The notes: generated by a model from the letters alone, not told the origin. A DNA stretch of 64,000 nucleotides from Candidatus Sumerlaeia bacterium (GCA_963580245.1 CAUZJO010000001.1:67564-131563), one strand, 5' to 3'. Shown: positions 28,768 to 59,991, counted from the stretch's first letter. Numbers and translations: made by a program.

Positions 28768-30726
28768 TCAATCCAAAGCCCTGACCATCAGCTCCGCGAT
28801 ACGTCGGCTAAACGCGCTGGGATCGGCCAGTTTGCCGTCTTCGGAAAGCACCGCCTGGCCGTGCAAGAGCTCGGCGTATTCGGCGAGTCGCGGGTCTTGG
28901 GGGTCTTTTTCAAACAATGATGACAGTTTCTCGACGATGGGATGGTTAGGGTTGAGTTCCAGGATGCGTTTGACTTCCGGCACGTCCTGGCCCATTGATT
29001 TCAGGATCTGTTCGAGCTGCGGCGTGAGGTCGGCCTGTTCACCGACGAGGCACGCCGGCGAGGTCGTCAGTCGGCTGGAGAGCCGGACCTCCTTGACGTG
29101 CTTCTCAAGCTTGCCCTTGATGGCCTCGAGCAGCGATTGATACGTCTGCTCCTGCTCCTTGCGTTCCTCCTCGGCTTTTTTCTTCTCTTCCTCGTCGCCC
29201 AGTTCGATCTCGCCCTTGCCGACCGACTTGAACGGCTTATCCTTGTGTTCGAAGACCCCGCCGGTCCAGATCTCGTCGATCGGGTCGCTCAGCAGCAGGA
29301 CCTCGTAGCCCTTGTCGCGAAACGCCTCGAGGTGAGGTGAGTTCTCGATCGCCCCGCGCGACTGACCCGTCATGTAATAGACCGCGTCCTGCCCGTCCTT
29401 CATCCGGCCCACGTAATCCTGCAACGTGCTCAGCCCCCCGTCGACCTGCGTGGACTCGAACAGGCACAGATCGAGCAGCGCCTCGCGGTTGCGTTCATCA
29501 TGAATGATGCCTTCCTTGATCACGCGGCCGAACTGGCGCCAGAATTTCTCGAACGACTCGGCCTCGTCCGCCTGCATCCTGCGCAGCGTATCGAGGACCT
29601 TGCGCACCAGGCTGTTGCGGATCAGACGGATCTGGCGGTTCTGTTGCAGGATCTCGCGCGAGATGTTGAGCGAGAGGTCTTCGGAATCGACGACGCCGCG
29701 GATGAACCGGAAGTACTCGGGGATCAGCTCCTTGCAATCGTGCATGATGAAGACGCGCTTGATATAGAGTTGTATCCCGTGGTCGCCGTCGGGCATCAGG
29801 ATATTGATCGGCGCCTGGGACGGGATATAGAGCAGCGCGCGGAACTCGTGGGTCCCCTCGGCCTTTATGCTGAACCACTTGAGCGGGTCGGTCCAGTCGT
29901 GGCTGATGTGTTTGTAGAATTCCTTGAATTCCTCTTCCTTGACCTCGCTCTCGGGCCGGGTCCAGATCGCCTTCATCGAGTTGAGTGTTTGGTCCTCGAC
30001 GACGGTCCGCTCCTGGGCGCCTTCCTTGGGTTTACCTTCCTCGTCGCGTTCAATCTCGCTACGCTCAACCTGCATGCGGATGGGATACGAGACGAAGTCG
30101 GAATACTTTTTGACGGTTTGCCGAATGACCCATTCCTGCGTGAAGTCCTCGACCCCCTCTTCCTCGCTGACCGGTTTGAGGTGAAGCGTGACGGTGACGC
30201 CCTGGGCGGACCGTTCGGCTTCCTCCATCGTGTAGCGGCCGTCACCGTGCGATTCCCACTTCCAGGCCTGCTCTTCGCCGGCGCGGCGGGTGACGAGCGT
30301 CACGCGGTCGGCCACCATGAAGCTGGAATAGAAGCCGACGCCAAATTGTCCGATGAGTTCGGTCGGCACGTCGCTCTTCTTGGTTTGCTTGACCAGCTCG
30401 AGGAAATCGGCGGTCCCCGACTTGGCGATCGTTCCGATAAAACGGATGATCTCGTCGTGATTCATCCCGATCCCGTTGTCGCTGACCGAGAGCGTGCGCT
30501 TGTCCCCGTCCACTTCGATGTGGATATGGGCGTCTTCGGTCAGGTTGCCCAGCTTCTCACTGGTCAGGGCCTCGAAGCGCAGTTTGTCGAGGGCGTCGGA
30601 GGCGTTCGAGATCAGCTCGCGCAGGAATATCTCCTTGTGCGAGTATACTGAATGAATCATCAGATCCAAAAGCTGCTTGGCCTCGGTCTGGAATTCATGG
30701 GTTTCGATCGTGGCGGTCATCGTCAA
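28768..30726 (-). CDS. htpG: Molecular chaperone HtpG (Hsp90).
   Basis: The N-terminal ATPase motifs are FLRELISNASDALDKLRF and GQFGVGFYSSFMVADRV. The length is 652 aa, with GGAGGAG as Shine-Dalgarno. Confidence 0.92.
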   Translation of the reverse strand: MTMTATIETHEFQTEAKQLLDLMIHSVYSHKEIFLRELISNASDALDKLRFEALTSEKLGNLTEDAHIHIEVDGDKRTLSVSDNGIGMNHDEIIRFIGTIAKSGTADFLELVKQTKKSDVPTELIGQFGVGFYSSFMVADRVTLVTRRAGEEQAWKWESHGDGRYTMEEAERSAQGVTVTLHLKPVSEEEGVEDFTQEWVIRQTVKKYSDFVSYPIRMQVERSEIERDEEGKPKEGAQERTVVEDQTLNSMKAIWTRPESEVKEEEFKEFYKHISHDWTDPLKWFSIKAEGTHEFRALLYIPSQAPINILMPDGDHGIQLYIKRVFIMHDCKELIPEYFRFIRGVVDSEDLSLNISREILQQNRQIRLIRNSLVRKVLDTLRRMQADEAESFEKFWRQFGRVIKEGIIHDERNREALLDLCLFESTQVDGGLSTLQDYVGRMKDGQDAVYYMTGQSRGAIENSPHLEAFRDKGYEVLLLSDPIDEIWTGGVFEHKDKPFKSVGKGEIELGDEEEKKKAEEERKEQEQTYQSLLEAIKGKLEKHVKEVRLSSRLTTSPACLVGEQADLTPQLEQILKSMGQDVPEVKRILELNPNHPIVEKLSSLFEKDPQDPRLAEYAELLHGQAVLSEDGKLADPSAFSRRIAELMVRALD

Positions 30727-30889
30727 GGGTCTCCTCCAATGGCGGTCGTCGCATCAATTACTGGCGTTCTCTGGCGGGTGGCGGAGCAATCTTATCGTTT
30801 GACCGCCACCTACAGTAACAGAACTATTACCACGACCAGCGTTGGGAATCACCTGGTTTTTGTAGATTCTTTCGTATCAATAGGACGCG

Positions 30890-31035
30890 GATGACGCGGA
30901 TTTTACGGATTCACACCGATCAGAGAATAATTAAAACTTGTTTATATATTGCCTTAATCCGTGAAAATCTGTCAAATCCGTATCATCTGTGTTCCATAAT
31001 TCGCGAGAATCCGTTGAATCCGCGTCATCCGCGTT
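30890..31035. promoter_or_regulatory. AT-rich (40% GC) module in the htpG promoter region. It is bounded by 15-bp inverted repeats and carries multiple CGGATT/AATCCG half-sites. It is either a candidate heat-shock operator or a MITE-like insertion.
   Basis: ggatgacgcggattc at 30889-30903 and gaatccgcgtcatcc at 31021-31035 are perfect reverse complements. Inside, CGGATT occurs twice on the left and AATCCG four times on the right. GC is 40%, against ~63% for the window. Confidence 0.5.
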
Positions 31036-31040
31036 CCATA

Positions 31041-31310
31041 TCAAAAGCTCGACGAGATCGTTCTTTCATATTCGGGAAAGTATCTGTTGATCAGCGGCAG
31101 GTCGAAACGCGACAGAATCATCGTATTGCTCTCACGTTCGAGCAGGAACTCGAACGACCGCTTGATCAGTTCCGCCTCCGATGCCTTGCCACCCGTCAGC
31201 TTTTGATAATAGGCCGGATCAAGCGTCACCGTGTGCGTCGTGGTCGACTTGTCTTCAACGGTCACGTGATATGAATCCGCGCCTTTCTCTTCAACGAGTA
31301 TGTTCGCCAT
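31041..31310 (-). CDS. Small hypothetical protein of 89 aa, divergent from the carbohydrate cluster and co-directional with htpG.
   Basis: The ATG has a GGGAGG Shine-Dalgarno 10 nt upstream. The composition is coding-like (MANILVEEKGADSYHVTVEDKSTTTHTVTLDPAYYQKL…). Confidence 0.5.
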   Translation of the reverse strand: MANILVEEKGADSYHVTVEDKSTTTHTVTLDPAYYQKLTGGKASEAELIKRSFEFLLERESNTMILSRFDLPLINRYFPEYERTISSSF

Positions 31311-31527
31311 AGGTGTCCGCCTCCCATTTGTCCGGCATTCGGAAAACCATGGGTTAATAATACACCCCGGGCCTTAATGTCAAGCCTTCATGACCGCATC
31401 GGCCCATTCGGGTATGATGCAGTTTTGGGAGTCAACGCAATTTGAGGATTACTTGTTTGACACCGTGCCGGTAAGGGATTAGTCTGGGAGCTGGAGATTA
31501 AAGTACGCGCTGTATCGGAGCGACTGA

Positions 31528-40276: not shown

Positions 40277-42337
40277 CTACCAAATAGAGGCCAACTTCCA
40301 GATTTCGAGGTTCTTCACCTTCGTCGAACCCCCAGCGGAAAACAATTCGATTCCCAAGTCCGTCGCCGGCGCGGAGACCGCCACCGTATAGACCACCCAA
40401 TCATTGGCGAAGACTTCCATGATATGTTGATCGATAAAGACGTGAAGCCGCAACGTGGTTTCGCCTTCCATGAGATCGGCGGGGATTCGTTCGCCGCTGA
40501 CCTCGAGGCGCTCCCCATCATAACGGATCGGAATATTTTGGGATCCGTCCGCGGAACGCCGTAGCTTCAACCCGAATTCCTGGGCCGAGCCGGGGACGAA
40601 TTCCACTTTGACCTCGAGCATGTTCCCCTCGATGCCATGAATCACATGGGACTCATCCGCGAGGTCCACGTCCGTTTTCGCGTAGTGTTCCCCTCTTAAT
40701 TTAGCCAACGCCTCGATAGGTTTCTGGGCGAGTTTGCCGTCGGGCCGCATCGTCAGCACCCGGGGTAGCGACTGGCCACCCGGCGCCATGCCCATGTAGA
40801 TCATGCGGCCGTCCTTATCCTCGAACGGCGTGCATCCATAAAACGATCCCGAGTATTCCGCATGGCCGTGCGTCTTGGGATCGTGCTTCTCCGAGCCGAC
40901 GAAATCGACGAAACCATGCACTTCGGGCGTAAAGGTGTAATTCTCCCAATCGAAGCTGCCGGTATAGTATTGAGTCGGGCCGAAGGGCTCGAAGATGACG
41001 ACCCATTTGTCGCCCAGTTTAAACATCTCGGGCTCTTCCCACCCTTTGGTGTCGGCGACGTAGGGAACGCTCACGAATTCCCAGTCGATCAGGTCGTCCG
41101 ACGCGTGCAGGGAGTAACATCCTTTGTATTCGCCGTCGACCATCTTGAGTCCTCCAAGGACCATGTACCACTTATCCTCATGTTTAAATATGCCACAATC
41201 CGTCCCGTGGGTCATGGGATTATCCGGCGTGTTGGTGATGACGGCATTGGTCGGATACTTGCGCCAGGTCGTTAAATCCGCGTCTCCCACCGCCGCCATC
41301 TGGTCCATGGGCCGCTCCGAACTGCGGCTTGTGTAAAATAGCCTCGGCACGCCGTTGTCGTCGATCACGGCCGCGCCCGAGGCGCAATAGAACTCGCCAT
41401 TGTCCTCCGAAGGCCAGATCTCCACGTCCAAGTCTTCCCAATACACCAGGTCCTTGGATCGCGCGTGACGCCAGAAATTGTGGTTCCATGTGTCCTTACG
41501 GTCCCAAAACGGGTCATAGATATAGAACAGATGATAGTACCCGTCGTGATAAACGCAAGTCGGTCCGCCGAAACCGAAGACAGGCGCATTGTAGTGGTAA
41601 GCGTGACGCGGCGGGGCTTCTTTTTCGGCTTTCGCGACGTTTTCATTGGCGCGCCGCAGAATGTCGGCGTCGTGCAAGACGTCCCATCGGGGCTGATCAC
41701 TCTGGACGATTTGATCGACGCAGATGAAACCGTGCCGCCCCGCATTGTTATCAACGATCCGGATCTGGGCCGTCTTGCCGCGTAGGGTTCGGACGTCCCA
41801 GGTCGCCCATTCCAACTCGACCCGATCGTCCGAATCCAAGCCCGGGCCGGTCGTCGTGCGCAGGGCGATCTTGTCGCCGACGGCCAGTCGGTGATGTCCG
41901 GCGTTAATGGTTTCGAACGTATAGACCAGCTCGGCCGGATCGAGGAGTAGGGTTAGACAACACTCCTCGCCGTAAAACTCCTTCGGCTCGCGGATGTTGC
42001 GTTTTCCCAGGTGGTATCCACCACCGACGAGAAAGTTGATATAGTCCCGTTCGATCACGAAAGGCGGCGAAGTCAGAACACCCTTCGAAGCTTCTCCGCC
42101 ATGACGAGAGTACAACAGACGGTCCCCGGAATAGCCCTTTATCGACGGTTGGTCGACTCGGGGCCCCACGGTGGGGCCCGCGCCGAACGCTTTTCCCGTC
42201 ACCGCCCATTCTTCAAATGACTCATTCTCGAAATCGGCGATGAGAAGATCTTGCGAGCCGGCCGGCGTGACCACGTTCGCAAACATTGCCGCCAGAAACC
42301 ACAGGTGGCCTAAGCATCTTTTTGCGCGTTTTCCCAT
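40277..42337 (-). CDS. Secreted GH32-fold protein, copy 3 of 3, lacking the nucleophile Asp.
   Basis: Its C-terminal third is ~93% identical to copy 2, including identical nucleotide stretches. It is separated from copy 2 by only 33 bp. Confidence 0.75.
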   Translation of the reverse strand: MGKRAKRCLGHLWFLAAMFANVVTPAGSQDLLIADFENESFEEWAVTGKAFGAGPTVGPRVDQPSIKGYSGDRLLYSRHGGEASKGVLTSPPFVIERDYINFLVGGGYHLGKRNIREPKEFYGEECCLTLLLDPAELVYTFETINAGHHRLAVGDKIALRTTTGPGLDSDDRVELEWATWDVRTLRGKTAQIRIVDNNAGRHGFICVDQIVQSDQPRWDVLHDADILRRANENVAKAEKEAPPRHAYHYNAPVFGFGGPTCVYHDGYYHLFYIYDPFWDRKDTWNHNFWRHARSKDLVYWEDLDVEIWPSEDNGEFYCASGAAVIDDNGVPRLFYTSRSSERPMDQMAAVGDADLTTWRKYPTNAVITNTPDNPMTHGTDCGIFKHEDKWYMVLGGLKMVDGEYKGCYSLHASDDLIDWEFVSVPYVADTKGWEEPEMFKLGDKWVVIFEPFGPTQYYTGSFDWENYTFTPEVHGFVDFVGSEKHDPKTHGHAEYSGSFYGCTPFEDKDGRMIYMGMAPGGQSLPRVLTMRPDGKLAQKPIEALAKLRGEHYAKTDVDLADESHVIHGIEGNMLEVKVEFVPGSAQEFGLKLRRSADGSQNIPIRYDGERLEVSGERIPADLMEGETTLRLHVFIDQHIMEVFANDWVVYTVAVSAPATDLGIELFSAGGSTKVKNLEIWKLASIW

Positions 42338-42891
42338 GTGTCGAGTCTCTTTTTCGTGAAGGTTATTGGATGTACCCCGGCGAGTTCAACTTGGCTGAAA
42401 CTCAAGATCACCCTTCTATCCAAGCACATGATCCGGTGAAATCAGCCGTCATCAATTCTCAACCGCGATTCATGACGCGCATCATAGTCCGGTATCCTCG
42501 CGATAATCAAGGATTTCGTGTAAGTTCGGACGGCCCGCAAAGGTTCGTAACATTCGAATGTTTCTCCTCCGCGGCGGGCAACCCCGCGATTCAGCGGATA
42601 CACGACGCCCGGGGAATAATCCATCAGCCCGAGGGATTGGAATAACACTGAGAACCAAGAAGAATCGCGCCATTCCACGAACGACCCACACGAATAGATA
42701 GGCCACCCGTGGTCGGGGCGCGGGGAATGATGCTGTTCGCGCGAGGTCGACGCCTAGAGTGCCTGCCAATGCGTTTTGCCGAGCAGCAGTTTGTCAATGA
42801 AGATGATGAGTGCGAGCATGTGTGCTGAGAACCGGATGAGAGTTTGTTGATCGGGGGTGGGTCCGGATCAGACGAGGACAATACTTCGGAA

Positions 42892-43830
42892 CTATTCCGT
42901 TGCCGCCTGTTGCTCCTGAGGTTGAATGCGCTGCATCGCGCGTGCCGCGTTCTTGCGGATCGTCTTATTCGGGTCCTCCATCAGGATCTGGAGATCGGCG
43001 AGCGCGGCGTCGCCGAACGAACGGGCCAGTTCCTGGATGGCCGTCTGGCGAACGCGCACGTCGGTGTCGCCGTGGGCGACCTCGGCCAGGACGTTGCGCG
43101 CCGCATCGCTGCCGACCCGCGCGACGGCGTTAATCGATTCGAGCCGCACGTCGCGGTTGGGGTCGTTGCGGAGATGATCGGCCAGGGTATCGAGCGAGCC
43201 TTCGCGTCCCGAGAGGGCCTGGACCGAGTTGAACCGCAACCGCGACTTTTCTTCATTGTCGAGGATATCAGCGATGGCGTCTCCGGCTTCGGCTTCGGGG
43301 CGCTCGGCCAGCGATCCGATGATCTCCTTGCGCATGCTGAAACCATCTTCTTCCTTGAAAAGCGTTTCGAGTGTCGGCACGGCCTCTTCGTCCTCGATCT
43401 GGCCCAAGGCGTCGATCAGCAACATCTTCTGATGCGTCGCCCCGGCCTCGTCATACATACCGGAGATCGCCCGCGAACCGCCGGACCCCAGCTTGGCCAG
43501 TCGCCGGACGTATTCCGCGGAAGTCTTCCTGCGCTTTTCGATGAGCGCCTTGGCATCGTCATAATCGAGCATTCCGGCGTATCCATAAAGGTCGCGATGC
43601 TTCTCCAAGATGTCGGCCACCATCGCCTTCATGGCGCGTTCGGAGGGTTTGTTCGGCGCTTTGGCGGGGGGCCGGCCCTCGGCCCGCATGCTCTCGGGAA
43701 CCACGGGGAGCCTTCTCGGTTTCACCGTCGCCGCGGGCTCTTCGATCGCTTTGTCAAGGGGTCCTTGTGTAAGCCACACGCTTGTGGCCAGAACCAGTGC
43801 CGCCAATCCGACGTAAAGCCAACGTTTCAT
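42892..43830 (-). CDS. Secreted HEAT / PBS-lyase-like repeat protein.
   Basis: A signal peptide is present. Repeated ~30-aa helical units with D/E…R…A motifs (…DPNRDVRLESINAVARVG…, …GDTDVRVRQTAIQELARSFG…, …DPNKTIRKNAARAM…) mark the HEAT repeats. Confidence 0.65.
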   Translation of the reverse strand: MKRWLYVGLAALVLATSVWLTQGPLDKAIEEPAATVKPRRLPVVPESMRAEGRPPAKAPNKPSERAMKAMVADILEKHRDLYGYAGMLDYDDAKALIEKRRKTSAEYVRRLAKLGSGGSRAISGMYDEAGATHQKMLLIDALGQIEDEEAVPTLETLFKEEDGFSMRKEIIGSLAERPEAEAGDAIADILDNEEKSRLRFNSVQALSGREGSLDTLADHLRNDPNRDVRLESINAVARVGSDAARNVLAEVAHGDTDVRVRQTAIQELARSFGDAALADLQILMEDPNKTIRKNAARAMQRIQPQEQQAATE

Positions 43831-47330: not shown

Positions 47331-47781
47331 GCCGGGGATATTGCCGTCGCTATCTAGGGTGTTCATGGTTTGGGTCTCGTTGTGCGCGCATCCGCCGAAA
47401 CAGGCCCCGGCTTCGTCAATGATGAAAATACTTTCAGTGCAAGTGAAGTCGAATCCACCCGCGCTTGTCATCGTTCCCACATCCAGGTGCGGAGCGCCCG
47501 CCAGATCGACGTCTTCAAAATCGATCAGGTGTCCTTCCACCGCGCCCCGTCCATACCAGTACAGGAGCGCTTGTTTGATCGCCGCGCCGGCGGGAACGTT
47601 AACGTTGAGCGCGGCCGGTTGAGTGTTCAGTCCTGTTCCCCCAACCGCGACGCCACTCCCGGATTGGATTGGAATGCTGGGGACACCCAGCGTTTCATTT
47701 CCATCGGCCCAGACGTTGAATGATGTGAGTGCCACGAGCAAAATCCAAAAAATGGATGCGCGGGCTGTCGAAACGGCAAAA
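47172..47781 (-). CDS. N-terminal signal-peptide part of the same large surface protein, in a different frame (frameshift or pseudogene).
   Basis: The ATG at 47781 with a GGAGG Shine-Dalgarno gives MQSFAVSTARASIFWILLVALTSFNVWA. It is protein-like to ~47330, after which the downstream frame takes over. The ORF-track 5' extension to 48293 is not supported. Confidence 0.55.
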
Positions 47782-56417: not shown

Positions 56418-57641
56418 ATGGGATCACCCCATCCACAGCCTCCACAGCATGACGGGCCAGGGTCCGCGCCCCGGTCGATTCTGCACGTCGATATGGACGC
56501 CTTTTTCGCCGCCGTCGAGATGCTCGATCGGCCCGAGCTGCGAGGCAAGGCGATCATCGTGGGTGGGCTGCCCGAGGAGCGGGGCGTGGTGGCGACGGCC
56601 TCCTACGAGGCGCGGCAATTCGGCGTGCACAGCGCGATGAGTTCGCACCAGGCGTACCGGCTCTGCCCCCGCGCGATTTTCGTCAAGCCGCGCGGCACCC
56701 GCTACGCCGAGATCTCGCGCCAAGTATTCCAGATCTTCGAGGATTTCACGCCGATCACGGAGAAGGTCTCGATCGACGAAGCGTTCCTGGACGTGACGGG
56801 GAGCTTTGGGCTGTTTGGTTCGCCCGAGGCGATCGGGCACGAGATCAAGCGACGGATCCTCGAGGAATTGGGTTTGGTGGCCTCGGTCGGCGTGGCGCCG
56901 AACAAGTTCCTGGCCAAGCTGGCCAGCGACCTGGAGAAGCCCGACGGGTTCGTCGTCATCCGCGCCGGAGAGGCCAAGGTCCTCTTGGCCGGCCTGCCGA
57001 TCGGCAAGCTGTGGGGCGTGGGCAAGGTCACGCGCGGCAAACTGGAGCGACTGGGCATTCGGCGCATCGGCGACCTGCGGGCGATCCCGCCTCAGGACCT
57101 GGAACGTCATCTCGGCTCGCAGGCGCGGACCCTGCTCGACCTGGCCCGGGGGATCGACGATCGGCCGGTGGTGGTGGATGCGGAGGCCAAATCGATCGGC
57201 GCGGAAACGACCTTCGTGCGTGATATCGCGGGCCGTCGGCAGCTTCACGAACACCTCGACCGCCTGGTTGAGCGAGTCGCCCGGCGGCTGCGCGACAAGG
57301 GCCGGCGCGCGCGAACGATCCACCTCAAGGCCCGCTACGCCGATTTCACGACCGTCACGCGGGCACACACGCTCCCCAGTCCCACCGCCCTCACCTCGGT
57401 CATCCGCGACACCGCGCGCGAACTCCTGGACCGCAAGCTGGGCCGGGCCGACCGGCCGCTGCGCCTGCTGGGGGTCTCGGCGAGCAACCTGAAGCGGGCC
57501 GACGAGGGGCAACTCGAACTGTTTCCCGATGGACGGGAAGAGAAGGCCGAACGGGTTGACCATCTGATCGATGATCTGCAGGACAAGTACGGCGAGCAAA
57601 AGATTCATCGCGGCAAGGGGTCGAGAGATCGAACGGCTTGA
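56418..57641 (+). CDS. dinB: DNA polymerase IV (Y-family).
   Basis: Matches are ILHVDMDAFFAAVE, SYEARQFGVHSAMS and SIDEAFLDVTG. A little-finger domain follows. The 20-aa N-terminal lead is not conserved. Confidence 0.88.
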   Translation: MGSPHPQPPQHDGPGSAPRSILHVDMDAFFAAVEMLDRPELRGKAIIVGGLPEERGVVATASYEARQFGVHSAMSSHQAYRLCPRAIFVKPRGTRYAEISRQVFQIFEDFTPITEKVSIDEAFLDVTGSFGLFGSPEAIGHEIKRRILEELGLVASVGVAPNKFLAKLASDLEKPDGFVVIRAGEAKVLLAGLPIGKLWGVGKVTRGKLERLGIRRIGDLRAIPPQDLERHLGSQARTLLDLARGIDDRPVVVDAEAKSIGAETTFVRDIAGRRQLHEHLDRLVERVARRLRDKGRRARTIHLKARYADFTTVTRAHTLPSPTALTSVIRDTARELLDRKLGRADRPLRLLGVSASNLKRADEGQLELFPDGREEKAERVDHLIDDLQDKYGEQKIHRGKGSRDRTA

Positions 57642-57855
57642 GGAGACGCCCGCTTTTCATAACCGTCCCTTCAACTATCCCGCTCTTGAATCAATCCGAG
57701 TTTTGTTTGAGAGTACTCGGGGGCGCGCAAGTGGACATTCATATTGCGGCCGGCATCATTGCCACCATATGATGAAAGTGGGTTGGATGATGGTCAAATA
57801 GGCTGATGCGAACTTCGATCATCAGCCAGCGACCGCGAATAATTTGGAGTCCGTC

Positions 57856-58083
57856 GTGTTTGAACGAGAAACTCAGACCTATCAGGACCACTTGGAAAAG
57901 TTGCTCGCCAAGGAGGGTAAATATGTCTTGATCAAGGGCGAAGATATTATCGATACGTTCGATACATACAAAGATGCCCTCAAGGTTGCGTATGACCGTT
58001 TCGGACTGGAGAGCGACTTCCTCGTCAAACAGATCAGCGCCAGCGAGCAGATCGTTCATTTTAGTCGTGATATTCAGTCCTGA
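57856..58083 (+). CDS. Small protein of unknown function (~75 aa), the first gene of a lower-GC two-gene cassette.
   Basis: The GTG at 57856 has a GGAG Shine-Dalgarno 6 nt upstream; the ORF-track TTG at 57844 is the alternative. It has an alpha/beta-like pattern (…EGKYVLIKGEDIIDTFDTYKDALKVAYDRFG…). Its stop overlaps the next start (TGATG). Confidence 0.5.
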   Translation: MFERETQTYQDHLEKLLAKEGKYVLIKGEDIIDTFDTYKDALKVAYDRFGLESDFLVKQISASEQIVHFSRDIQS

Positions 58084-58526
58084 TGCCCCACATGACCGAT
58101 AAATTGTCCCGCTTGGGTGCCATTGCGGACTTTGAGATTTCCGTTAGTAGGCCAAGACGGGATGCCCTCGTCAGGGCGGGTAAACCGCTGCCCACGGGGC
58201 ACGTGATCCGAGGTCTGATCGATACGGGAGCCAGTCGAACATGCGTTGATTCGTGCGTACTTGCGGACCTTGATCTCAAACCGACGGGTGTGGTCTCCAT
58301 CCGAACGCCGTCCACCGGTAAGTCGGCGCACCAGGCGAAGGAATTCGACGTGAGCATTACGTTGCTCCATCCCAAGGCGTCAAGCAATATTCTTACGTTA
58401 CCGGTCATCGAATCGGACTTGGATGATGGGGCCTATGGCTACCAGGTGCTTGTGGGGCGTGATATTCTCGGTATGTGCTTGTTTATCTACGATGGCCCCT
58501 CAGCGAGTTTTACTCTGTCCTTCTGA
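58083..58526 (+). CDS. Retropepsin-like clan AA aspartic protease (bacterial DTGA-type, 147 aa).
   Basis: The active-site motif is GLIDTGASRTCVD, with a C-terminal VLVGRDIL block. It is translationally coupled to the upstream small ORF. The local GC of ~50% contrasts with ~63% for the window. Confidence 0.7.
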   Translation: MPHMTDKLSRLGAIADFEISVSRPRRDALVRAGKPLPTGHVIRGLIDTGASRTCVDSCVLADLDLKPTGVVSIRTPSTGKSAHQAKEFDVSITLLHPKASSNILTLPVIESDLDDGAYGYQVLVGRDILGMCLFIYDGPSASFTLSF

Positions 58527-58650
58527 CCTCAGTCTCTCCCATCCAGAACCCGCCGCGACGAATGAGCCTATTGCGCTCTTGGGGTGTTCTTTCTATGGTG
58601 TGGGTCGCTGGAAAGACCCCATGGTGGGGTATATTCGTGAAGGGACCGAA

Positions 58651-59991
58651 ATGTTGGCTGAGACGGCCTTAGATCACCTAAGCGAAGAGGCCCGCGCAAT
58701 CTTTATGGCGGCGGTCCGGGGGGTTGAGCCGGGTCGATTGATGGCGGGGCTGGATTGGGCCGATCTGGCGGGTCGGCCGGTTGACGCGTTTGAACGGGTC
58801 CGGGTGATCGGCGCCGGCAAGGCGGGCATTCCGATGGCCCGCGCGGCTGAAGATGCCCTGGGGGGGCGCATCGCGGGTGGGGTGGTTGTCGTCCCGCATG
58901 GCTATCGCGCGACGCTACCGGCCGGATTGGCCCCGCCGGACACGATCGAGGTGGTCGAGGCCGGCCATCCGCTTCCCGACGCGCAGGGCGTGGAGGCGGC
59001 GCGGCGGTGTTTGACGCTGGCCGAGGGCTGCGGGCCCGCCGAGTTGCTCCTGGTGCTGATTTCGGGCGGCGGGTCGGCGTTGTGGCTGGCGTTCGCGGGC
59101 GGGATCCCGCTCGAAGACGCCCAGGCGGCGTTCGGGCTGCTCCTGCGTAGTGGGGCGACGATCCATGAGTTCAACACCGTTCGCAAGCATCTGTCGCGCA
59201 TCGGCGGCGGCCAGTTGGCCAAGGTGGCGGGGGGCGCGGGGGCGGTGGTCGGGTTGGTCATTTCCGACGTCATCGGGGACAGCCTCAGCTCGATCGCGAG
59301 CGGCCCGCTCGTGCCCGATCCCACCACTTTCGGCGATGCAGAGGACGTGCTGCGGCGCCATGACCTGATCGACAAGCTGCCCGCCTCGGTCCTCAGGCGA
59401 ATCGAGGACGGGGTGTCCAATCCCGACCTGGAGACACCCAAACCCGGATTGCCCTTGTTTGAAGGCGTCCGAACGCACCTGCTTGCCGGCAACCGGCAGG
59501 CACTGGAGGCGGCCGTCGCCGAGGCCCGACGCCGCGGATTCCACGCGCGCGTCTTGACCGAGGACCTCCAAGGCGAGGCGCGCGAGGTCGGCGAACACCT
59601 GGTGGCGATCGCCGCTCAAGACGACACCCCGCGGCCGAGTTGCCTGCTGTGGGGCGGCGAGACGACGGTGACGGTGAAGGGCCGGGGCAGGGGAGGTCGC
59701 AATCAGGAAGTGGTGCTGGGGGCGGCCCGCGCGATGCGAGGGTTGGAGCAGTGGATGCTGGTCCTCAGCGGTGGGACCGACGGGATCGACGGCCCCACCG
59801 ACGCGGCCGGCGCCTGGGCTTCGCCGGCGACCGCGCGGGGGGCCGAGGCCGCGGGCCTGTCCATGGACGACGCCCTCGCCGACAACGACGCCTACCCCTT
59901 TTTTGAACGTCTCGGTCAGCTAATCAAAACAGGCCCGACTCACACGAACGTGATGGACGTCATGATTGTGCTGCGCGGCGAGAAGGGCTGA
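58651..59991 (+). CDS. Glycerate 2-kinase of the MOFRL family (GckA/TtuD-type).
   Basis: DUF4147-like N-terminal and MOFRL C-terminal blocks are present: VIGAGKAGIPMA, LVLISGGGSAL, EFNTVRKHLSRIGGGQLA and VISDVIGDSLSSIASGP. The ATG at 58651 has a GAAGGGA Shine-Dalgarno. The ORF-track start at 58423 overlaps the protease gene. Confidence 0.72.
   Translation: MLAETALDHLSEEARAIFMAAVRGVEPGRLMAGLDWADLAGRPVDAFERVRVIGAGKAGIPMARAAEDALGGRIAGGVVVVPHGYRATLPAGLAPPDTIEVVEAGHPLPDAQGVEAARRCLTLAEGCGPAELLLVLISGGGSALWLAFAGGIPLEDAQAAFGLLLRSGATIHEFNTVRKHLSRIGGGQLAKVAGGAGAVVGLVISDVIGDSLSSIASGPLVPDPTTFGDAEDVLRRHDLIDKLPASVLRRIEDGVSNPDLETPKPGLPLFEGVRTHLLAGNRQALEAAVAEARRRGFHARVLTEDLQGEAREVGEHLVAIAAQDDTPRPSCLLWGGETTVTVKGRGRGGRNQEVVLGAARAMRGLEQWMLVLSGGTDGIDGPTDAAGAWASPATARGAEAAGLSMDDALADNDAYPFFERLGQLIKTGPTHTNVMDVMIVLRGEKG

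Follow-up and report, generated by a model that had tools for sequence, protein, structure and literature searches.

What is the role of a small gene whose stop codon overlaps the start of a retropepsin-like aspartic protease gene, the two lying together in a segment of lowered GC content between a DinB-type DNA polymerase gene and a gene of the glycerate kinase type? The question is raised by a locus of Candidatus Sumerlaeia bacterium (GCA_963580245.1, CAUZJO010000001.1:67564-131563) that we have studied within a stretch of 64,000 nucleotides, referred to below as the window and numbered from its first letter. Free-standing prokaryotic retropepsin-like proteases are numerous, but partners or substrates are known, as far as we are aware, for hardly any of them. 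The original prediction was that the two genes form a compositionally foreign cassette with the architecture of a small toxin/antitoxin-like or defense module. The reading that we favor, and in which we place about even confidence, is a type II toxin-antitoxin (TA) like module in which the protease would be the effector and the small protein, which resembles DUF5678, would neutralize it by way of its C-terminal tail. The features of the locus are as follows.

56418..57641, + strand: DinB-type Y-family DNA polymerase gene (Pfam IMS/IMS_C), flanking and outside the module
57642..57855, + strand: upstream intergenic spacer, 50.9% GC, with a promoter match, an inverted repeat and a Shine-Dalgarno sequence inside
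57856..58083, + strand: small protein gene, 75 aa, GTG start, based on sequence, homologues and gene call
58033..58080, + strand: codons for the small-protein C-terminal tail, residues 60-75, ISASEQIVHFSRDIQS, a putative protease-binding element
58083..58526, + strand: retropepsin-like (clan AA) aspartic protease gene, 147 aa, candidate effector/toxin
58221..58235, + strand: codons for the catalytic motif D47-T-G-A-S51, from sequence and alignment
58455..58463, + strand: codons for G125-R-D127, the second retropepsin signature, from sequence and alignment to the GRD of HTLV-1 protease
58527..58620, + strand: downstream spacer with a weak terminator-like hairpin at 58573-58587, preceding the glycerate-kinase-type gene
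58621..59991, + strand: gene of DUF4147+MOFRL glycerate-kinase / hydroxypyruvate-reductase type (Pfam domains), flanking and outside the module

The coordinates confirm the overlap that had been described for the ~75-aa and 147-aa ORFs, with the stop codon of the small gene (TGA, 58081-58083) and the ATG of the protease gene (58083-58085) sharing one base, the A of the stop being the first base of the start (TGATG). The preferred start of the small ORF is the GTG at 57856, and the canonical Shine-Dalgarno sequence claimed for it is present as a GGAG (57846-57849) that sits 6 nt 5' of the start. An alternative TTG start at 57844 would give a protein of 79 aa; the GTG is preferred because it agrees with the homologues as well as with the public gene call on a metagenome contig of identical sequence (L002). 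The boundaries of both genes are identical in that gene call, which places the dinB start at 56493. The neighbors are also those named at the outset, as established by the IMS/IMS_C domains upstream and the DUF4147 and MOFRL domains downstream, and a spurious small ORF is excluded by clear conserved homologues in other genomes (38-58% identity, E values down to 1e-15).

The pair had been described as a cassette of ~50% GC in a window of ~63%. The segment 57642-58560 has a GC content of 52.7%, as against 61.7% for the window, 66.8% for dinB and 69.2% for the glycerate-kinase-type gene, and both genes of the pair (GC/GC3 of 0.465/0.592 for the small gene and 0.554/0.635 for the protease gene) are clear low outliers relative to the 41 long ORFs of the window, for which the mean GC is 0.629±0.032 and the mean GC3 0.774±0.071. 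On the basis of these segment, window, flank and ORF figures the dip is real but milder than first stated, and it is not unique, a second low-GC patch at 30.1-31.2 kb of the window being even lower than the module segment. Insertion of the pair between the flanking housekeeping genes is a candidate event, with composition as its sole basis. The closest homologues of the flanking glycerate-kinase gene are at most 60% identical, the named ones among the closest being from Rhodothermales, and in the two relatives that were compared, Rhodocaloribacter (L087) and L088, each 58% identical, dinB does not adjoin the glycerate-kinase gene. Flanking repeats were considered as insertion scars and rejected; a 14-nt direct repeat at 57675/58568 matches at 12 of its 14 positions, with about 2 expected by chance (an estimate), and inverted repeat pairs around the cassette, which are similar in this respect, were rejected likewise.

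The hairpin noted upstream of the small gene does exist, as an inverted repeat (GGCTGATG at 57801-57808 and CATCAGCC at 57820-57827) with a stem of 8 bp, rather than the 6 bp first given, and a loop of 11 nt, but it is neither clearly above chance nor conserved. One of 30 shuffled sequences yielded an equally long stem, the z-score of the RNA fold is -1.27, and across 75 loci there is no conserved inverted repeat upstream of the module, with a mean best stem of 6.0 as compared to 5.5 in shuffled sequences; the hairpin was rejected as an operator or attenuator on these grounds. The same spacer contains a weak sigma-70-like match by consensus only (TGGACA-16-CATCAT, 57732-57759). The terminator-like hairpin downstream of the protease gene is a single site where 1.4 are expected in shuffled sequences and so provides no evidence of function, and a search of Rfam over the entire window gave no match.

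The 147-aa protein carries the catalytic motif LIDTGAS at residues 45-51 (DTGAS at 47-51), of which D47, T48, G49 and A50 are invariant in the protease alignment. Among close relatives DTGA, TPST, LPVIE and GRD are all invariant, and D[TS]GA is found in 57 of the 59 family proteases, as is G[RM][DN]. In the profile searches that the original prediction proposed for the protease, the curated Pfam models considered (Asp_protease_2, gag-asp_proteas and RVP) gave sub-threshold matches, with 20.7 bits for Asp_protease_2 where the threshold is 24.3, and no NCBIfam model matches. Distant relatives (L070 and L089) do exceed the Pfam protease threshold, with 27.5 and 28.1 bits, and the family profile can be aligned with HTLV-1 protease (E 2e-4) over a stretch that extends from near residue 24 past DTGA as far as GRD. 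A Foldseek search with the AF2 model of the protein (pLDDT 81, pTM 0.74) returned Rickettsia APRc (5c9f, E 4e-5) as the top match, followed by the RSV, FIV and HTLV-1 proteases and DDI1 (E values to 1e-3). The protein contains a conserved N-terminal β-hairpin plus helix of ~38 residues, and neither a hydrophobic stretch nor a TM segment was found in it, the maximum Kyte-Doolittle mean over 19 residues being 1.18. Because of the motifs, the profile match, the fold model and the lack of a TM segment we conclude that the 147-aa protein is, as judged from sequence and model, a soluble single-lobe retropepsin-like aspartic protease, presumably homodimeric and catalytically competent, in keeping with its original assignment to clan AA with an intact DTGAS site and no TM segment. 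Retropepsins must homodimerize in order to bring two DTG aspartates together.

With APRc the window protease shares the single-lobe clan AA fold (TM 0.58-0.66) and the DTG and GRD-type motifs. APRc, SpoIIGA and PerP are membrane-embedded or periplasmic enzymes that are involved in envelope or sigma-factor processing. Unlike these, the window protease has no TM segment or signal peptide, including the N-terminal TM segments of the APRc or TIGR02281 type, it has the N-terminal extension of ~38 residues, and it always comes with a small partner gene. The HTLV-1, FIV and RSV proteases and the RVP domain of DDI1 have the same fold and the same catalytic signature at an identity of only 10-17%; unlike the retroviral enzymes the window protease lies outside any polyprotein or retroelement, with no RT, integrase or gag nearby, and unlike DDI1 it has no UBL or UBA domains.

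A profile of the small protein, searched against 1.84 billion representatives, matches 3984 clusters at E ≤ 1e-3 and 1342 at E ≤ 1e-10, the clusters being defined at 50% identity. Protease fusions were rejected as an explanation of the larger family members, which are tandem duplications of the domain. The match of the small protein to DUF5678 (Pfam PF18929) scores 17.9 bits (E 0.003), below the gathering score of 23.2, and DUF5678 is found at E ≤ 1 in 5 of 16 relatives. An AF2 model with a pLDDT of 81 consists of helix 3-19, strands 23-27 and 30-35, helix 38-49 and strand 56-59, and compares with Pandoravirus DUF5678 proteins at TM values of 0.64-0.69. On profile score and predicted structure, the 75-aa protein is related to DUF5678 distantly and below threshold; it has an α/β core and is distinguished from DUF5678 by an extra N-terminal helix and by the conserved C-terminal tail of this clade. 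We know of no function for DUF5678. The small-protein family is mostly acidic.

The tail, comprising about residues 60-75, is modeled with low confidence in the monomer, with pLDDT values of 59 and then 44. It nevertheless contains a family motif, E64-x-[VI]-x-[FYH]-[FIV]-[ST]-R71, in which the E is present in 72, the R in 62 and the aromatic residue in 56 of the 77 small proteins, and such a combination of conservation and low pLDDT is expected for a segment that folds on binding. Aspartic proteases prefer aromatic-hydrophobic P1-P1' pairs and their cleft binds sequences of this kind; the aromatic-hydrophobic dipeptide of the tail would fit a pseudo-substrate inhibitor or, equally, a cleavable substrate. 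An analogy for the former is provided by yeast IA3, an intrinsically disordered protein inhibitor of proteinase A, which is a two-lobe pepsin-type enzyme. By this analogy the small protein would block one particular aspartic protease through a disordered segment that becomes folded when bound, although IA3 has no relation in sequence or fold to the small protein, for which we infer inhibition.

How strictly the two genes belong together was assessed from both sides. When loci were sought with the protease, 11 distinct ones included DNA on its 5' side, and in every one of them a homologous small gene immediately precedes it, often with an overlap and sometimes missed by the gene caller. When the small protein was the query, scanning one genome for each GTDB species gave 62 loci. 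The complete set of loci contains 77 distinct small proteins, of which 59 are followed by a full-length protease that starts between -26 and +31 nt from the small-gene stop. Among the loci examined no intact protease was seen without a small gene, nor any genome with several copies of the module. From these comparisons both ORFs appear as real, conserved genes, and the pair as conserved and translationally coupled. Pairwise identities among the small proteins track those among the proteases closely (r = 0.79, Mantel 0/999), from which we conclude that the two are inherited and diverge together as a co-evolving unit.

[quoted passage not shown] This case is a locus of a Coatesbacteria MAG (L067) in which the gene of a clear member of the small-protein family (family HMM, E 6e-26) shares an ATGA overlap with that of a 131-aa Doc, identified by Pfam Fic (E 7e-13) and by the motif HIFCDGNKR, and in which a charged C-terminal extension of different sequence takes the place of the usual tail. 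Panacea and Phd-C with Doc exemplify reusable antitoxin cores with toxin-specific C-terminal neutralizing elements (NetFlax preprint, 10.1101/2023.03.22.533649). On the partner swap we place the small protein in the antitoxin role with the tail as a putative toxin-specific element, and the reading of the pair as toxin and antitoxin is independently supported by this homologue, which would tie the partner protein to classical TA biology.

The likeness to Phd-Doc and Panacea/PanA thus includes a bicistronic arrangement with a coupled small first gene, a patchy and mobile occurrence, a reusable core with a variable C-terminal tail, and one member that is itself paired with Doc. The differences are that the effector here is a retropepsin-like aspartic protease, that the DUF5678-like core is without a recognizable DNA-binding domain, and that toxicity and neutralization are predictions here. 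The combination of a DNA-binding antitoxin and an autoregulatory operator that is usual in type II systems was not found, there being no recognizable DNA-binding antitoxin fold in the small protein and no conserved operator across the loci. The TA-like or defense architecture originally proposed is supported in part, by a conserved, coupled and co-varying pair with a patchy occurrence and a Doc-paired homologue; a DNA-binding fold and a match in PADLOC were not found.

The manner in which the pair decays bears on the assignment of roles. An intact small gene with no trace of a protease is found in nine loci, and five more retain protease remnants, so that small genes stand beside deleted, truncated, IS-disrupted or stop-containing proteases (L020, L021, L025, L029, L033, L049, L056, L062, L065, L066, L071, L074, L075 and L084). 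In L049 a Mutator-family transposase on the opposite strand begins ~30 nt past the truncated protease ORF, in L056 the protease is split by an insertion of ~1.3 kb, and that of L084 has an in-frame stop. The protease-type tail is retained in the orphan small proteins of L020, L021, L029, L033 and L062. The pattern is as predicted for a toxin/antitoxin relation and is suggestive; as statistical proof the asymmetry was rejected, with 10/10 versus 47/61 (Fisher p = 0.09), and it is open to ascertainment bias because most loci were found via the small protein.

The mechanism that we propose is that of a self-contained, horizontally mobile module of two genes of the type II toxin-antitoxin kind. 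The cytoplasmic single-lobe retropepsin-like protease encoded downstream would homodimerize and act as the effector ('toxin'), and the small acidic DUF5678-like protein encoded upstream, and coupled to it, would be the cognate neutralizing partner ('antitoxin'). A compact α/β core would bear the tail E-x-V-x-[FY]-[FIV]-[ST]-R, disordered when alone, and by binding of this tail the protease would be held inactive. The likeliest binding sites would be the substrate cleft, which the tail would occupy as a pseudo-substrate, and the dimer interface. Were the small protein lost, the protease would be freed onto cellular or invader proteins. The sequence comparisons suggest for the small protein the part of an antitoxin-type partner by which the protease is restrained, and physical binding, tail-mediated inhibition, toxicity, the trigger and the substrates are the parts of the model that we infer. 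We know of no precedent for an aspartic-protease toxin.

The tail can also be read in a way that makes nothing in the pair toxic. The protease would then cleave the small protein at the aromatic-hydrophobic dipeptide, maturing or activating it, and the conserved [FYH]-[FIV] in a segment modeled as flexible is indeed of the P1-P1' type favored by aspartic proteases; tight coupling and co-evolution, moreover, suit any obligate pair. We consider such an enzyme-substrate relation unlikely, however. Small genes outlive the protease in about 14 loci, which is odd for a precursor needing processing, the L067 member is paired with the Doc toxin and no processing enzyme, and there is no signal peptide, transporter or other maturation gene near the pair.

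Further evidence on the proposed toxin-antitoxin-like module comes from its distribution. The 62 genome loci are all from MAGs, in the majority Acidobacteriota, with others from Planctomycetota, Gemmatimonadota, Proteobacteria, Nitrospirota, Chloroflexota, Binatia, Poribacteria, WOR-3, Coatesbacteria and a CPR bacterium, as well as from two archaeal MAGs, one of a Woesearchaeote and one of a Thermoplasmata archaeon. The closest relatives of the window pair are in Planctomycetota and Acidobacteriota MAGs (49-58% identity). Among the 139 ORFs that directly flank the pairs 131 Pfam families are represented, with no conserved third gene; the only recurrent neighbor is an IS1-family transposase, which in seven loci precedes the small gene by 68-138 nt. 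Several loci have TA genes, an integrase or defense genes in the vicinity, the further neighbors including ParE/antitoxin, MazE-like, phage integrase, Shedu SduA-like, HNH/PtuB-like, SoFic and Imm8 genes and, as identified by eye, a DUF433-like/PIN-like pair. One contig of IMG/VR matches the protease, with the pair at the end of this phage-like contig, whose ORFs look by eye like a prohead protease, a small terminase and a tape measure; the search of IMG/VR with the small protein gave no match. Patchy phyla, ever-different neighbors and IS1, plasmid and phage-like associations indicate by comparison of sequences that the module is horizontally spread, and the pair, whose conservation and mobility the original prediction proposed to examine, is conserved across genomes for 59/77 distinct small proteins and for 11/11 loci counted from the protease.

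These neighborhoods invite the more specific view of a dedicated anti-phage (abortive-infection) system of TA-like architecture, in which a phage cue would release the protease. Some neighbors match defense models (Shedu SduA, PtuB-like HNH and SoFic), one pair is carried by the phage-like contig, and an orphan small-protein homologue with a protease-type tail, whose gene adjoins a phage Dam methylase gene in an early region of phage-like type, could be an anti-defense decoy. Only a handful of the 139 neighbors are defense-like, however, neither protein matches any family of PADLOC-DB v2 at E ≤ 1 or any PHROGs family, and no match was found in 50,697 deposited phage genomes, and we regard a dedicated anti-phage function as rather unlikely.

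An obligate pair might alternatively consist of a protease and its specificity adaptor, activator or assembly factor, in the way that ClpS serves ClpAP. The match of the small protein to ClpS is below any reliable threshold, the patchy spread, variable context, low GC and links to IS, plasmid and phage are unlike those of a housekeeping system, and orphan small genes and a Doc partner would be left unexplained; an adaptor or regulator pair is in our estimation quite improbable. A reversal of roles, with the small protein as toxin and the protease as proteolytic antitoxin in the manner of the ImmA-type proteases in RosmerTA, has a precedent in protease-domain antitoxins (NetFlax preprint, 10.1101/2023.03.22.533649) but is very improbable, given small genes that are intact without any protease in 9 to 14 loci and a small-protein homologue that holds the antitoxin position 5' of Doc, an established toxin.

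We found no description of the toxin-antitoxin-like pairing of a retropepsin-like protease and a DUF5678-like protein in the literature that could be searched or in Pfam, NCBIfam, PADLOC and PHROGs. Nothing was found for the small protein in NCBIfam either, no paper linking DUF5678 or retropepsins with antitoxins was retrieved in a literature search, and a retropepsin-like aspartic protease effector appears in no TA catalogue or paper searched. Because the pairing is undescribed in these sources, a TA-like module of this kind would have a new class of effector and a new antitoxin core. More tentatively, and we would call this possible rather than probable, the locus may represent an unrecognized class of TA or conflict module in which a latent cytoplasmic retropepsin is the effector, the DUF5678-like protein is the antitoxin, an exchangeable tail sets the specificity and orphan antitoxins of phage perhaps serve in counter-defense. 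Such a class would be widespread in uncultivated soil and sediment bacteria and in some archaea, and it would bring a new family of antitoxin domains and, for retropepsins, the first protein inhibitor of natural origin.

The module provides a prokaryotic retropepsin-like protease with an obligate partner and with a testable mechanism of inhibition by a tail, as well as hypotheses on the function of a large family of small proteins without annotation, which comprises about 4000 clusters at 50% identity. Should the protease prove a true toxin or defense effector, aspartic proteolysis would join the TA and abortive-infection repertoire, and a natural proteinaceous inhibitor of a retropepsin would be of possible structural and biotechnological interest. 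An experimental entry point is offered by a cultured organism, Methylobacterium radiotolerans NYY1, whose plasmid pNYY1_5 carries one distant pair, WP_234742552.1 / WP_234742553.1, the only one found in the plasmid search, annotated as 'hypothetical protein' plus 'aspartyl protease family protein'.

In three loci (L049, L056 and L084) the gene for the DUF5678-like small protein, the proposed antitoxin, is intact while the adjoining retropepsin-like protease gene has been inactivated. In L049 a transposase gene of the Mutator family, on the opposite strand, lies within ∼30 nt 3' of the truncated protease ORF, in L056 the protease gene is split by an insertion of ∼1.3 kb and in L084 its reading is interrupted by an in-frame stop.

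Protease genes inactivated beside an intact small gene
L049 5222-5368, truncated protease ORF
L049 5375-6583, minus strand, Mutator-family transposase
L056 5235-5522 and 6802-6936, split protease gene
L084 631-750 and 753-1064, stop-interrupted protease gene

Seven independent loci carry an IS1-family transposase gene 68-138 nt directly 5' of the small gene, in both orientations and with 41-64% identity to the L049 copy (BLAST, L049 copy as query); in some of these loci a short-loop palindrome lies ∼15-19 nt 5' of the small gene. This proximity reflects either IS1 targeting of the small-gene promoter region or movement of the pair at the IS edge.

IS1-family transposase genes 5' of the small gene
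L023 4040-4894
L030 4504-4890
L031 4295-4924
L032 3965-4894
L039 3958-4857, minus strand
L048 4037-4906, minus strand
L049 3991-4920, BLAST query copy

In L067 the place of the protease is taken by a canonical Doc toxin (HIFCDGNKR), whose gene overlaps at ATGA, and is translationally coupled to, the gene of a small-protein homologue with a C-terminal tail that differs from the conserved protease-type tail. A single protease is preceded by two tandem small-domain genes in L078, and fused tandem duplications of the domain occur in many metagenomic proteins of 170-305 aa (P0145, P0152, P0168, P0225 and others).

Doc-paired homologue and tandem small-domain genes
L067 4974-5273, small-protein homologue
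L067 5270-5665, Doc toxin
L078 4560-4748 and 4992-5189, tandem small-domain genes

Orphan small genes were also found. The 107-aa homologue P0018 retains the protease-type tail and is encoded within a row of small co-stranded genes with PHROG hits, adjoined by a phage Dam methyltransferase gene (phrog_111, E 1e-57). P0018 may act as an antitoxin decoy carried by a phage. The gene immediately 3' of the orphan in L062 encodes a polymorphic-toxin immunity protein, Imm8 (E 2e-31), and is followed by DUF433-like and PIN-like ORFs that, assigned by eye only, look like a further TA pair; the region is a conflict-gene cluster.

Orphan homologue P0018 and the L062 cluster
L090 1207-1530, P0018
L091 3001-3324, P0018
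L092 1321-1644, P0018
L062 1517-1915, 1920-2144 and 2122-2454, conflict-gene cluster

A 44.6-kb plasmid from a cultured isolate of Methylobacterium radiotolerans carries a distant form of the pair (78 aa + 132 aa; L089, NZ_CP090584.1 21381-22060), adjoining a PrtN-family pyocin activator gene. The Saci_1895 family, small (∼100 aa) retropepsin-domain proteins, has been reported to accompany type III-D CRISPR loci of Sulfolobales (PMC3973734), a further case of a free-standing prokaryotic retropepsin in a conflict-system setting.

The lowest-GC stretch of the window is 30100-31500 (minimum 49.4%, 919-nt window from 30601), spanning the start of an HtpG-like gene and a gap of ∼800 nt that holds a plausible 89-aa ORF; Rfam gave no match in this stretch.

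Genes at the lowest-GC stretch
28768-30726, minus strand, HtpG-like gene (assigned by eye)
31041-31310, minus strand, plausible 89-aa ORF

GC also falls locally, to ≤55% over 919 nt, at 47350-47700 and 41900-43800 of the window.
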